Assembly: GCF_001942495.1 (NCBI RefSeq)
Contig: NZ_MKZS01000001.1
Location: 186,503 to 219,574 of the forward strand
Source: Moorena bouillonii PNG
Lineage (GTDB): Bacteria; Cyanobacteriota; Cyanobacteriia; Cyanobacteriales; Coleofasciculaceae
Direction of reading: 5' to 3'
Length of the DNA: 33,072 nucleotides
Shown: positions 25,626-33,072 of the stretch, piece after piece
Layout: each line of letters opens with the position of its first letter
Numbering within the stretch: the first letter of the stretch is position 1
Position numbers and translations under genes: made by a program
The notes under the pieces: generated by a model
The model's input: only the letters and a program-made list of their open reading frames with translations
Told to the model about the DNA's origin: nothing
The model's database searches: none

Positions 25626-26009
25626 CTAGTTAGTTCCGGTTTTCAAGGGTTTGTAAAAGCGGCAAGAATCACAGGGTCCGTCTGGATTGACAGCACAACG
25701 AATCAATTCAGAGTGAGCATTGAAATAACAGCTGGCATCCCCAATCACCCAACGCCCCTGGAGCAGGCTTTTTTCACTAGGGTGTGGAGAAGACTGCACA
25801 TACAGAGCAATTTTATGCAAACGATAGCGCCCTGACTTAAGACAGTAGCGGTGGTGGCGCTCTAAAACTGTGTAGGTTTTACCTTTAAAGTCGAGATAGT
25901 TACCGGGTTGAGGTATCCAATCGAGTTGAACATTGCCAATGGTCTGACGTGGGTGGGTCAAAATTAACTCTGTCGGTAGAGAATCAGGCTCCATAGTGCT
26001 TATTGTCAT
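25626..26009 (-). CDS. Cys-rich hypothetical protein (127 aa). Before the IS insertion it lay 5 nt downstream of the gp25-like gene, so it is the last gene of the CIS operon.
   Basis: ORF with 'GPCDSCRFY'. The reconstructed pre-insertion junction places the gp25 stop (26018-26020) 5 nt before its ATG. Confidence 0.5.
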   Translation of the reverse strand: MTISTMEPDSLPTELILTHPRQTIGNVQLDWIPQPGNYLDFKGKTYTVLERHHRYCLKSGRYRLHKIALYVQSSPHPSEKSLLQGRWVIGDASCYFNAHSELIRCAVNPDGPCDSCRFYKPLKTGTN

Positions 26010-26054
26010 TCACGCTACAGTTGAATGGTATCGCAGGCTGTGGGCTGACTATCT

Positions 26055-26932
26055 AGGGCATGTCGTCAGTTAGAGAATTGACAACCAGTCAGTGCAGCTA
26101 TAGAACTGAGGGGAGTCAGGAAAACTCAACTAAGGAGGAAGTAATGCGTCGGTATGCCTTGCGTCTTGGATCAGTGGGAGCGAATTAAGGATATGCTACC
26201 TGGCCAGAAGGGCGCTTGTTGGTGGAAATGCCAAAGATAACCGCCTATTTGTTGAAGCCGTACTGTACCGATACCGTGCAGGTATTCCGTGGCGTGATTT
26301 GCCGGAGAGGTTTGGCGATTTTCGGTCTGTGCACAAGCGTCATAGCCTAGGGTCTGAAAGTGGTGTGATAGAACGTGTATTCAAGACACTCTCATTAGAT
26401 GCAGACAACGAGTACGCTGCGCTCGACGAACACAATTGTACGCGCTCATCAACGAGGGTGCTGGTGCAAAAAAAAACACCAGACGATAAACCATTAACAC
26501 AAGCAATTGGACGCAGTAAGGGTGGTTTATCTACCAAAATTCATGCCACCTGTGATGCACGCTGGTAATCCCACAGGGTTTCATCTGACCCCCGGTCAAG
26601 CACATGATTTGCAGGGAGCTGATGCGTTACGCGGGTGGTATACATGAGATTGGTGCACTGCTTGCAGACAAGGCTTACGATGCGTCAGAGCGGGTGCTCA
26701 AACGATTAAAAGAAGCTGACTGCCAAGCTGTCATTCCTCCTAAAGTCAATCGTACTCAACTTTGAACATATGACTTGCACATGTATAAGTGGCGTCATCT
26801 GATCGAAAACTTTTTTCAGAAACTTAAGCAATACAGGGCAATAGCAACTCGCGCTTGATAAAACTGCTCGTAATTTTTTGGGAGCCATTCATCTCGCCGC
26901 TTCTGTCATCTGGCTTAACTGACGACATGCCC
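26055..26932 (+). mobile_element. IS5-family insertion sequence (IS427/IS1031-like, 878 bp). It has 17-bp perfect terminal IRs (GGGCATGTCGTCAGTTA) flanked by a TA duplication. The transposase is interrupted.
   Basis: IRs at 26055-26071 and 26916-26932 with flanking TA at 26053-54 and 26933-34. The transposase fragments read 'ERIKDMLPGQKG', 'NAKDNRLFVEAVLYRYRAGIPWRDLPERFGDFRSVHKRHS', 'SKGGLSTKIHATCDA', 'GNPTGFHLTPGQAHDLQGADAL', 'LADKAYDASE' and 'YKWRHLIENFFQKLKQYRAIATR', all IS5-family hallmarks. They are spread over three frames with stops, so at least part of the disruption is decay rather than a programmed frameshift. Confidence 0.8.
26299..26925 (+). pseudogene. IS5-family DDE transposase, frameshifted and carrying stops
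   Basis: See the mobile element above. There are multiple in-frame stops, including 'GSVGAN*', 'CDARW*' and 'GWYT*'. Confidence 0.7.
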
Positions 26933-27295
26933 TAAGTTAAAGCGATTATTAGTACGGCGCACTTGGTAGTTTATTTCTATCAAGAGACGATTAAATTGAT
27001 CTTCATCCGGGTAAACACCTACATCTAGAACCTCAATGCGCGGTTCCCACTGGGTCAAGGCTCGGCGTACCTCCACTGTTAATTGTCCAGCTGTCCCAGC
27101 GCTGTTGCTGGCAAATACTAAATCATGAATACCGCAGCCAAAATCTGGCCGCATCAGCCGTTCTCCTGGAGAAGTACTCATAATCATCCAAATCGACTGG
27201 CGGACACTATCCTCATATTGCGCCATATCGATTTGTTTATTTTGGTCGAGTACTACGGGGAAACTCCATCCCACTCCGAGAAAATCAGTAGTCAT
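26915..27295 (-). CDS. Baseplate protein of the gp25/GPW family (TssE-like). The C-terminus has been altered by the IS5-family insertion.
   Basis: 'SIWMIMSTSPGERLMRPDFGCGIHDLVFASN' is the GPW_gp25 signature. The last 6 codons and the stop are encoded by the TA duplication plus the IS inverted repeat. Confidence 0.85.
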   Translation of the reverse strand: MTTDFLGVGWSFPVVLDQNKQIDMAQYEDSVRQSIWMIMSTSPGERLMRPDFGCGIHDLVFASNSAGTAGQLTVEVRRALTQWEPRIEVLDVGVYPDEDQFNRLLIEINYQVRRTNNRFNLGHVVS

Positions 27296-31090: not shown

Positions 31091-31098
31091 GGTTAATT

Positions 31099-31950
31099 TT
31101 AGGTTAGATTAAGTACCGGGATGGTCAGAACTTGACCTGGTGTAAGGTTACGGGGATTATTAATCCCATTAGCCTTGGCAATCTCTCGCCAGAAGCTGGG
31201 GTCATTATATTCTTGACCAGCGATGCTGCTCAGGGTTTCTCCACGTCGCACAACGTGAATTGGGTCGTCATCCCGTGCCAGAGAACTGGGCTTTTCCCGC
31301 TCCTCATCTTCTTCAGGGATGAACTGGTGGAAAGTACAGTTGAGAGCGGCCCTGACTGGCATCCCATTAGGGGTAAACATAGTAAAGCGCTGGGTTAGTT
31401 GTCCAAGATACCCCTTAAAAATCAGGTTAAATGCCCCCCACCAGAGTTCACATACAGGGGGACGTTTTAAATCAGAGTCAATCAGAGTCAACTCAAAAAT
31501 CTTATTCGTATACTCTCGAACATCTACAGCATTGGGTGCTGATAATCCATACACACCAGTTAACGATGACGCCGCTGTTGCCGCTCCCGATGCAACTCGT
31601 TTGAGGGGAGAACTGCCGCCCCCGGATATACTTTCAGGTAGTCCCTCGTAGGTGTCAAAAAACAGGTCGAGAGTCAGGGTTGCTGGATCCCCACCAATAA
31701 ATTTAGTATCACCGCGATCGCGGTTTTTGAGAGTTTCATGACGCCATTGGGTTGTCTTGGTAATTTGAATTTCATTAGGATTGAATAGAGGCATTGGTTT
31801 GTTTTCTGGAAAAACCATCTGCCATCTTTTTCCTGGCTGCTCCTTGAGGATGGTTAATTTATCTAACTCTGCCCCAAAGAGGCTACTTGTTAATCCTTTG
31901 GTTTGGTTTAGTGTTTTTTGGGCTAGATTCTTAAACCCTGTTAATGCCAT
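31099..31950 (-). CDS. LysM-domain protein (Cis7/Afp7-like, or a gpU-gpX-like fusion) of contractile injection systems
   Basis: C-terminus 'GETLSSIAGQEYNDPSFWREIAKANGINNPRNLTPGQVLTIPVL' is a LysM domain. The gene sits immediately upstream of gpD-like, 8 nt from it. Its ATG overlaps the stop of the upstream gene in an ATGGCATTAA arrangement. Confidence 0.65.
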   Translation of the reverse strand: MALTGFKNLAQKTLNQTKGLTSSLFGAELDKLTILKEQPGKRWQMVFPENKPMPLFNPNEIQITKTTQWRHETLKNRDRGDTKFIGGDPATLTLDLFFDTYEGLPESISGGGSSPLKRVASGAATAASSLTGVYGLSAPNAVDVREYTNKIFELTLIDSDLKRPPVCELWWGAFNLIFKGYLGQLTQRFTMFTPNGMPVRAALNCTFHQFIPEEDEEREKPSSLARDDDPIHVVRRGETLSSIAGQEYNDPSFWREIAKANGINNPRNLTPGQVLTIPVLNLT

Positions 31951-33072
31951 TGGCTTAATCCCCTCCGCTCACTTTCTATGGTCAGATGCTGCATCAGTTT
32001 ATGGTGTACTTTCTCTACTAGTTCATCCACATCAATGTCCTCCACAGACTGATTAGTTGTAGTAGCGCCTGTTGTATTTTCTGATGCTTTCTGAATCACG
32101 GTATTTGCCTGTAAGCTAGTAGTTGATACAGTTGATATACTAGTTGATACTGATGCACCGTTGACAGATGGCATTCTTTGGATAACTCCAGAGCCATGAT
32201 CACCAATAGATGGCGAACTACTAACTCCTAGTCCGTTGCCAGAAAATGACGTTCTATTGACCCCAGAGGCGGAAAAAATCAGGGGAGCAGATAATTGATA
32301 ACCATCTTTTCCGGAAATTTCTCTAACCACTGGTCGCTCCGGGGTGGGTTGAATCAATGGCTGCTTTCCTTCGGATGGGCTGTTGACTATCTCCTTGACC
32401 ACTGGTCGCTCCGGGGTGCGTTGAATCAGTGGCTGATTTCCCTGGGATGGGCTGTTGACAATCTCTTTGATCACCGGTCGCTCCGGGGTGGGTTGAATCA
32501 GTGGCTGATTTCCCTGGGATGGGCTCTTGACTATCTCCTTGTGAAGCGATCGCTTTGGGGAGCGTTGAATCACTGGCGACTGGGTCAGGTTTCCGGAACT
32601 GCCTAGCGATCGCTTAGACTCTGTTGGCAAAGTGGTATTGGTGTTTTTTAAATTGTTTTTTAAATTGTTTTTTAAATTGTCTGAACTGACCTCTCCCCCA
32701 ACTCCTGCTCTAGTAGGAAAGGAATGTTGAGTACCACCCGTTCCTTCAGGATTAGGAGGGTTAGGCAACTTTACCAACATCTTCTCAGAACTACTTCCAG
32801 AACTACTTGATGACTGGGAGTTAATTGCTTTGGCTTGGACAACTGGCCAGGATAAGTCAGAAGATAGTCTAGTTTTCCTAGAAGGTTCAAGACCAGAAAC
32901 TAGGGGTTTGCTCTCAGAATCTGCTCTGGGGGAAGTCCTCTTAGTGGAGTTTACAAATTTTGCCTGGACAATCAATGGTTTTGTCCCAGATTTGCCCCTT
33001 TCAGAGGGTATTGAATTTGGTAACTGCTCAGTGCAATAAAGATGCTCTATTGACAAGCTGAGAGGGAAAATT
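31941..33072 (-). CDS. Repeat-containing Ser/Pro-rich protein, 5'-partial, possibly a tape-measure-like length determinant of the CIS
   Basis: The ORF is open to the window edge. It has three 20-aa repeats 'KEIVNSPSQGNQPLIQPTPERPVI' and 'NLKNNLKNNLKN', the latter from 15-nt DNA repeats. The conserved-looking C-terminus 'DIDVDELVEKVHHKLMQHLTIESERRGL' is translationally coupled to the LysM gene. The functional call rests on position only. Confidence 0.35.
   Translation of the reverse strand, partial: IFPLSLSIEHLYCTEQLPNSIPSERGKSGTKPLIVQAKFVNSTKRTSPRADSESKPLVSGLEPSRKTRLSSDLSWPVVQAKAINSQSSSSSGSSSEKMLVKLPNPPNPEGTGGTQHSFPTRAGVGGEVSSDNLKNNLKNNLKNTNTTLPTESKRSLGSSGNLTQSPVIQRSPKRSLHKEIVKSPSQGNQPLIQPTPERPVIKEIVNSPSQGNQPLIQRTPERPVVKEIVNSPSEGKQPLIQPTPERPVVREISGKDGYQLSAPLIFSASGVNRTSFSGNGLGVSSSPSIGDHGSGVIQRMPSVNGASVSTSISTVSTTSLQANTVIQKASENTTGATTTNQSVEDIDVDELVEKVHHKLMQHLTIESERRGLSQWH

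Follow-up and report, generated by a model that had tools for sequence, protein, structure and literature searches.

A contractile injection system locus of the Afp/PVC kind in Moorena bouillonii PNG that appears to be fragmented by insertion sequences

Gene content of the locus

We analysed a stretch of 33,072 nucleotides of the cyanobacterium Moorena bouillonii PNG (contig NZ_MKZS01000001.1, positions 186,503 to 219,574), referred to here as the window. An earlier note on this DNA had described, at positions 25,626 to 33,072, a minus-strand operon for the hub, spike and baseplate of a phage-tail-like contractile injection system (CIS), interrupted by two insertion sequences (IS). ORF (open reading frame) calling located all seven minus-strand ORFs where that note had placed them. 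The features of the region are as follows, with E-values after the domain names and lengths in nucleotides (nt), base pairs (bp) or amino acids (aa).

31941 to 33072, minus strand: ORF in the tape-measure position, labelled from its position, its length variability and a C-terminal motif that is conserved; partial, with a frame that remains open where the window ends
31099 to 31950, minus strand: Cis7-like tube initiator with a C-terminal LysM domain, 283 aa; Pfam CIS_tube 7.1e-29, LysM 3.1e-9
30002 to 31090, minus strand: gpD/gp27-like baseplate hub, 362 aa; Pfam Phage_GPD 6.9e-9
28964 to 30020, plus strand: IS-A, an IS1-family element of 1057 bp with 23-nt perfect terminal inverted repeats; DDE_Tnp_IS1 1.2e-21 (pieced-together frame)
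28116 to 28955, minus strand: gpV/gp5-like central spike, 279 aa; Pfam Phage_base_V 1.2e-30
27737 to 28115, no strand: spacer of 379 nt between spike and PAAR genes, with heptamer arrays (TCAGCGG, 10.7 copies; GCTGATT, 19.4 copies) and a palindromic dispersed repeat
27311 to 27736, minus strand: PAAR spike-tip protein, 141 aa; Pfam PAAR_motif 2.1e-11
26915 to 27295, minus strand: gp25-like sheath initiator (Cis9-like), truncated; Pfam GPW_gp25 2.3e-29
26054 to 26934, plus strand: IS-B, an IS4/IS5-type (IS5-family) element of 875-881 bp, depending on the choice of ends, with 19-nt perfect inverted repeats
25626 to 26009, minus strand: DUF6464 gene, an ORF of 127 aa, probably 122 aa from a start at 25994; Pfam DUF6464 3.7e-40
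24404 to 25405, plus strand: fmt, convergent (tail to tail) with the DUF6464 gene

The Pfam families GPD, base_V, PAAR, GPW_gp25 and LysM were all recovered with significant E-values, and the gene calls of the earlier note were correct. Its description of seven tightly coupled genes held in part. The overlap ATGGCATTAA, in which the start of the LysM gene overlaps the stop of the preceding ORF, is present, as are gaps of 8 and 15 nt and, once IS-A is taken out, an ATGA overlap. The spike and PAAR genes, however, are separated by 379 nt, and the DUF6464 ORF lies 905 nt from gp25, a distance that includes IS-B.

The hub matched positions 17-348 of the NCBIfam model NF033848 (VgrG_rel; 6.6e-54), corresponding to the N-terminal two thirds of a VgrG-related protein, and the spike matched positions 370-523 of the same model (4.1e-46). 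Likewise, the two proteins align with successive parts of one solved chain, PDB 9GTR_q (residues 32-349 and 376-521, respectively), and the spike also matched VgrG, Afp8 and Pvc8. In the spike, an OB-fold is followed by a beta-helix of 63-nt (21-aa) repeats, encoded at 28388-28571. PDB relatives of the LysM protein were chain 9GTP_P of the Streptomyces coelicolor cytoplasmic CIS (CIS-Sc), AlgoCIS 7AEB_M, Anabaena All3321 (7B5H) and Pvc7. The locus thus combines a LysM-bearing tube initiator with an adjoining VgrG-type hub and spike, as in the extracellular CIS (eCIS) superfamily (Pfam, NF033848 and PDB homologues). A gp25-like initiator and a PAAR tip are also present, though the PNG gp25 is without its conserved C-terminal motif. 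The NCBI name on the hub already reads 'contractile injection system protein, VgrG/Pvc8 family'. Judged from its sequence, the CIS part of 25626-33072 is the hub-spike-baseplate half of a phage-tail-like CIS of the eCIS/Afp-PVC kind.

The ORF upstream of the LysM gene had been called tape-measure-like. Its position, its variable length and a conserved C-terminal motif fit this label, whereas no match to it was found in Pfam, NCBIfam, PHROGs or PDB, and a profile of its conserved C-terminus retrieved nothing from PDB. Orthologues are 468-492 aa long (L002 8604-10010 and L004 8532-10010 in the relatives introduced below), with a total length that varies by strain, and 72-nt (24-aa) tandem repeats at 32326-32577 also vary between strains. 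The C-terminal motif, DVDELV..K.L..L..E.ERRG, is a conserved helix that recurs in other phyla in the gene preceding the LysM gene, where the upstream frame can be as short as a few hundred codons or far exceed 1000; only the last ~30 residues are kept across phyla. A tape-measure function is thus a putative assignment, made from the position of the ORF (tube adaptor to LysM gene), its length variability and its C-terminal helix.

Intact relatives and class of the system

A genome scan with the LysM protein as query yielded 80 related loci. The close relatives are those of M. producens 3L (L002), Moorena SS36440 (L003), Symploca SIO2E9 (L004) and Moorena SIO3H5 (L005). In 3L, SIO3H5 and Symploca SIO2E9 the intact cluster starts with an AAA ATPase, a Pvc16_N cap, a CarboxypepD_reg protein and two Phage_sheath_1 sheaths. 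It continues with a gp19-like tube, a 120-aa ORF, a Cis5-like tube adaptor and the 468-492-aa ORF in the tape-measure position. LysM protein, hub, spike, PAAR and gp25 follow, and the cluster ends with a Baseplate_J protein of 1316-1353 aa and a LamG/TIGR02243 protein of 694-765 aa, the two wedge proteins. Note that the ORF between the two tube genes (119-120 aa; L002 7190-7549, L004 7363-7725) has a weak PHROGs match to the tail assembly chaperone phrog_508 (E 0.0025), and its position is like that of phage gpG-like chaperones.

Hub and spike are separate ORFs in 70 of 72 related loci, spread over Chloroflexota, Acidobacteriota, Bacillota, Myxococcota, Actinomycetota and archaea. The earlier note had treated this separation as distinctive; it is typical of the lineage, and separate hub and spike genes are standard across a widespread group.

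We considered whether the genes could belong to an ordinary prophage tail module or to a type VI secretion system (T6SS). PHROGs tail, baseplate and hub families do match the hub, spike and gp25, and NCBIfam T6SS models for VgrG, TssE and PAAR gave sub-threshold matches. However, these scores are far under the cut-offs (TssE, 36 against 53; vgr_GE, 85 against 122), as was found for all four models TIGR01646, TIGR03361, TIGR03357 and NF033420. TssB/TssC, TssK/F/G and TssJLM were found neither in the window nor in the flanks of the relatives, in agreement with the note's exclusion of a T6SS. As to a prophage, the orthologous loci L002 and L004 carry sheath, tube, the Cis15 AAA ATPase and the Cis16 (Pvc16) cap upstream, and no capsid, portal or terminase gene occurs within 10 kb upstream in these two relatives. 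Moreover, the other flank of the window holds housekeeping genes (fmt, rpmG, rpsR, RNase II, amt), and the best PDB relatives are CIS-Sc, AlgoCIS, the Anabaena thylakoid-anchored CIS (tCIS), PVC and AFP. A prophage or T6SS origin is thus very improbable, and an eCIS-type system, one of those that the note had proposed, fits these data.

By analogy with CIS of solved structure, the LysM protein together with the hub would bridge the change from the six-fold symmetry of the tube to the three-fold symmetry of the spike, the PAAR protein would cap the spike trimer, and gp25 would link the wedges to the first sheath ring and start sheath polymerisation.

The system itself is already known. Moorea genomes are listed as eCIS-positive and toxin-rich in published catalogues (PMC8213781, PMC11297309), which include the loci of, for example, M. 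producens PAL-8-15-08-1, 3L and JHB (Geller et al. 2021, PMC8213781; Danov et al. 2024, PMC11297309). Orthologues in these Moorena loci are 88-99% identical and stand in the same order (ORF in the tape-measure position, LysM, hub, spike, PAAR, gp25). PNG differs from them in four respects: an IS1 element lies in the hub/spike overlap, gp25 is cut by an IS5-type element, the wedge genes are not adjacent, and one wedge protein is annotated only as a 319-aa fragment. The oddities of the locus are thus IS damage in a single strain.

IS-A in the hub/spike overlap

Both elements reported in the earlier note are real, having inverted repeats and matches to transposase domains. IS-A shows the transposase domain, inverted repeats and 8-bp target duplication of the IS1 family; the duplication, GATGTCCC, is perfect and lies at 28956-28963 and 30021-30028. 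At least two breaks interrupt the transposase frame. The element sits exactly in the ATGA overlap of hub stop and spike start, and both ORFs stay full length. Removal of IS-A with one copy of the duplication restores the ATGA overlap that the note had reconstructed, and this intact state exists in Moorena SS36440 (L003), where the uninterrupted junction GGGACATCATGACAAGC was found with the overlap kept. A pristine version of the junction, which the note had proposed to seek in other genomes of the genus, is therefore at hand.

Five proteins of the window match M. bouillonii PNG records exactly, all on one sequence of 8,262,658 bp, and the hub is among them (OLT57820.1). Its orthologues are 357 aa long and end natively in ...NGTS*, whereas the last five residues of the PNG hub (VVINM) and its stop codon are encoded by IS-A. 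The 362-aa form is confined to this strain, because these last five residues are read from the insertion sequence. IS-A thus entered the hub/spike overlap with a clean duplication of 8 bp and left the two ORFs intact but uncoupled.

In M. producens 3L (L002 11935-12258) and Moorena SIO3H5 (L005 2092-2417) the hub/spike junction is occupied by heptamer-repeat spacers of ~325 nt. We rejected the possibility that these are derivatives of IS-A; they consist of heptamer arrays and have no similarity to the element. The junction is a recurrent insertion target, with IS-A in PNG and heptamer spacers in 3L and SIO3H5.

Moorena SIO3H5 and Symploca lack the heptamer arrays between the spike and PAAR genes, and their spacers measure 34-69 nt; in PNG the two arrays inflate the spacer to 379 nt. 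The PAAR protein itself is annotated with identical sequence in several Moorena genomes. Tandem arrays of 7-nt and 15-nt units fill intergenic spacers elsewhere in the window as well: in addition to TCAGCGG (27773-27847) and GCTGATT (27981-28116), these are AACCAGCTAACCTTC (12.3 copies, 24197-24380) and AACAGGG (12.9 copies, 14549-14638).

IS-B truncates gp25 and probably separates it from the wedge genes

The native sequence of gp25 ends at 26932/26933, and the last five codons (GHVVS) with the stop are contributed by the inverted repeat of IS-B. The PNG protein accordingly ends '...RFNL GHVVS*' where relatives read '...RFNL VYPFYLDY*', and the VYPFYL(D/E)Y end of its closest orthologues is lost (gp25 tail of 26 nt, TTTATCCATTCTATTTAGATTATTAA). 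Among the related gp25 tails listed, 67 of 68 carry the motif V(Y/F)P(F/Y)(Y/N)(L/I/V), down to 36% identity, and the single exception (L020) is a locus of degraded appearance. Relatives keep the motif almost without exception, and a gp25 that has lost it is probably disabled. The motif may also serve as a handy integrity marker for such loci.

The transposase of IS-B matches DUF4096 (2e-15) and DDE_Tnp_1 (3.5e-13) and contains several frameshifts and stops. One inverted repeat lies at 26054-26072, and the outer end of the other copy is at 26932. Similarity of the window to L002-L005 stops at precisely this end. The bases flanking the element differ between its two sides (CTAG and CTAA), and each matches the uninterrupted site in a relative. 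On the right, the flank derives from the CIS locus; on the left, it derives from a housekeeping region with the DUF6464 gene and fmt. Since the flanking bases differ and each flank continues in a different locus of the relatives, IS-B appears not to be a simple insertion but the junction of two loci, that is, a rearrangement breakpoint. Such a junction may be expected from recombination between two IS copies or from an assembly mis-join through them. Two scans of metagenome contigs gave no match to the gp25/IS-B junction or to its reciprocal.

Downstream of gp25, the relatives are uniform. Among the 68 related loci with at least 1.5 kb of DNA after gp25, a baseplate-J-like gene follows gp25 in every case, and the second wedge gene is present too in 65. 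In contrast, baseplate wedge genes (Cis11/Cis12, baseplate J-like) are absent throughout the 33-kb window, so that this copy of the locus lacks what its lineage has. The suggestion that the operon natively ends after gp25 therefore does not hold; absence of the wedge genes is, from the comparison of sequences, secondary and results from the cut at IS-B.

We searched for the wedge proteins elsewhere in PNG. The large one is encoded on the same chromosome record (WP_214607778.1, 1313 aa); its alignment to the 3L counterpart spans the whole protein, at 91% identity. Among the protein-cluster members listed, the second is represented only by OLT61276.1 (locus tag BJP37_21890), a 319-aa protein corresponding to residues 1-315 of the 694-aa protein. 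The PNG locus is therefore a split one, and the second wedge gene, at least, looks truncated as well. An inversion, a translocation or a mis-assembly may each be compatible with the split.

Both Moorena wedge proteins (P0433 and P0307) match one Streptomyces chain, the baseplate J-like Cis11 9GTP_1K, the 694-aa LamG protein most clearly through its first 73 residues. Therefore, the labels Cis11 and Cis12 may not map one-to-one in this lineage.

The DUF6464 gene belongs to the fmt neighbourhood

The earlier note had included the Cys-rich 127-aa ORF in the operon. This ORF is the DUF6464 gene, a housekeeping partner of fmt that has no CIS genes near it in the relatives. It has 583 homologues, of which 120 were listed; these share 71-95% identity with it, and those bearing a name are cyanobacterial. 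DUF6464 is absent from all 80 related CIS loci. The DUF6464/fmt pair occurs without nearby CIS genes in Moorena SIO3H5 and in Nostoc NIES-3756, where it stands beside psaC and glmS. Furthermore, positions 17659-26056 of the window are matched in collinear order by another contig of Moorena SIO3H5 (L081; 95-98% identity), on which an SLC12 transporter, a response regulator and uvrB precede the DUF6464 gene; the similarity ends at 26056. DUF6464 is thus a conserved cyanobacterial housekeeping neighbour of fmt, not a CIS gene, and inventories of CIS components should leave it out.

Between IS-B and the DUF6464 start, native sequence has shrunk to ~45-60 nt (26010-26056), and in SIO3H5 the nearest gene called upstream ends ~320 nt away. 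Expression of DUF6464 in PNG may be altered by the proximity of IS-B.

These data bear on the idea of a natively wedge-less, minimal baseplate in which DUF6464 replaces the gp6/gp7-type proteins. When IS-B is excised in silico, the gp25 frame reads on to a stop 5 nt before the DUF6464 start, an arrangement that resembles translational coupling. This would make IS-B a simple insertion into a gp25 gene reading natively towards DUF6464. We rejected this model: every orthologue ends in VYPFYL and none matches the restored tail, the two flanks of IS-B continue into different loci of the relatives, and DUF6464 pairs with fmt where CIS genes are absent. Synteny refutes such an architecture, to which we give practically no weight. 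The PNG locus is neither wedge-less nor a new, DUF6464-containing architecture. Its apparent 'wedge-less' operon is the known Moorena eCIS-type locus cut at insertion sequences, which carries little weight beyond annotation.

State of the system in PNG

Taken together, we consider it likely that this region represents the distal half, with the inner baseplate, of a CIS of the Afp/PVC type, fragmented by insertion sequences, with wedge genes that are no longer adjacent. IS-B replaces the VYPFYL end of gp25 and appears to join the CIS locus to the DUF6464-fmt region, thereby leaving the wedges non-adjacent. Most likely, the CIS of PNG is non-functional and in the course of decay. The alternatives of the earlier note, a decaying CIS or a split locus, were essentially right, as both appear to be true for PNG.

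Several points weigh against this interpretation. Apart from this damage, each of the six CIS ORFs in the window has its full length, and loss of function is thus inferred. The PNG chromosome record is a single 8.26-Mb sequence, in which the join at IS-B could be a chimera of two simple insertions; we take this record to be a short-read assembly with reference-guided scaffolding. Outside the window, the evidence from PNG consists of protein records without gene positions. Finally, 15 of the 22 members of the second-wedge protein cluster were listed, and a further PNG fragment may exist.

If the DUF6464/IS-B/gp25 junction were an assembly chimera, PNG would carry two simple IS-B insertions, one ahead of the DUF6464 gene and another within the 3' end of gp25, with the wedge genes behind the IS; 'interrupted' rather than 'split' would then describe the locus. 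With its length of ~880 bp, perfect ends and differing target bases, the repeat IS-B bears the signature expected of a mis-join through two copies, and the full-length wedge gene lies on the same PNG record. However, genuine recombination between two IS copies leaves an identical signature, the window contains no runs of N, and assemblers commonly break at repeats instead of mis-joining them. We regard a chimera as unlikely, while granting it more weight than any other rival considered here. Even under a chimera, gp25 would be without its conserved C-terminus and the operon would be cut twice. Thus, only the word 'split' would change to 'interrupted'; the identity of the system and the truncation of gp25 would stand.

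With its damaged locus, PNG may offer a natural CIS-deficient counterpart for comparison with M. producens, whose strains reportedly harbour many eCIS-associated toxins.

Comparison with solved systems

CIS-Sc (9GTP/9GTR; PMC10066040, PMC12237407) is the best solved relative by sequence for every component but gp25. In the PDB sequence search, E-values against CIS-Sc were 4e-20 for the LysM protein, 3e-26 for the hub, 1e-21 for the spike, 2e-29 for gp25, and 6e-61 and 3e-32 for the Moorena wedge proteins. The top PDB match of gp25 is 2IA7, annotated merely as a putative tail lysozyme. After CIS-Sc, the ranking continues with AlgoCIS, Anabaena tCIS, PVC and AFP. CIS-Sc differs in two ways: its VgrG-like Cis8 (643 aa) is a fusion, and it lacks a tape-measure gene, where the Moorena lineage keeps hub and spike separate and has a long ORF in the tape-measure position.

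The earlier note had singled out the tCIS of Anabaena sp. PCC 7120 for comparison (all3313-all3327; 7B5H; PMC8894136). This cyanobacterial eCIS-like system has homologous Cis7 (8.6e-14), Cis8 (6e-15), Cis9 (1.8e-17) and Cis11 proteins. However, its similarity to Moorena is much weaker than that of CIS-Sc, and its fused Cis8 has 589 aa. No tCIS chain was matched by the second Moorena wedge protein (694 aa, LamG) in the PDB search, and Moorea and Symploca do not occur in the supplements of the tCIS paper (PMC8894136). None of the hallmarks of a tCIS (a Cis12 extension for membrane contact, a Cis13 fibre with a transmembrane helix, a Cis19 crown) was encountered, though no search aimed at Cis13 or Cis19 was made. 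We found no special affinity to the Anabaena system.

Afp, PVC and AlgoCIS (6RAO, 6J0N, 7AEB/7AEF) contain the same parts as the Moorena lineage, namely a LysM initiator, VgrG-type hub/spike, PAAR, gp25, baseplate-J wedges, AAA ATPase and Pvc16 cap. The Moorena lineage differs from them in its P2/Mu-like gene order (ORF in the tape-measure position, LysM, hub, spike, PAAR, gp25, wedges) and in the split of hub and spike. No tail-fibre gene was seen in the DNA inspected.

For M. producens PAL, 'No afp13 in operon' has been noted (Geller et al., PMC8213781). Because the Moorena proteins are closest by sequence to the Streptomyces CIS and afp13 is missing from this operon, one may speculate that the Moorena/Symploca system is a cytoplasmic, self-directed CIS for stress-induced cell death in filamentous marine cyanobacteria. 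This analogy is doubtful, and we think it improbable that it will hold. If it were true, M. bouillonii PNG would be a natural loss-of-function strain in which to test it. In a weaker variant of this improbable reading, the PNG system might still assemble from its split locus in spite of the changed C-terminus of gp25.

Other features of the window

A short palindromic dispersed repeat (GTTCGCGTAGCGTGGCC...GGCCACGCTACGCGAAC) occurs at 8659-8903, 27903-27966 and 29578-29603. At 8659-8903 it forms a six-copy array of 39-nt units within a radical-SAM/DUF2344 ORF (7722-10628, minus strand); the other copies lie in the spike-PAAR spacer and in the IS-A transposase, at its reading-frame break.

At the opposite end of the window, positions 14-1471 (minus strand) hold a 485-aa ORF made up of Major Vault Protein repeats (Pfam Vault 1.9e-68, Vault_2 1.7e-35, Vault_4 1.5e-16), a bacterial homologue, in a cyanobacterium, of the eukaryotic vault shell protein.

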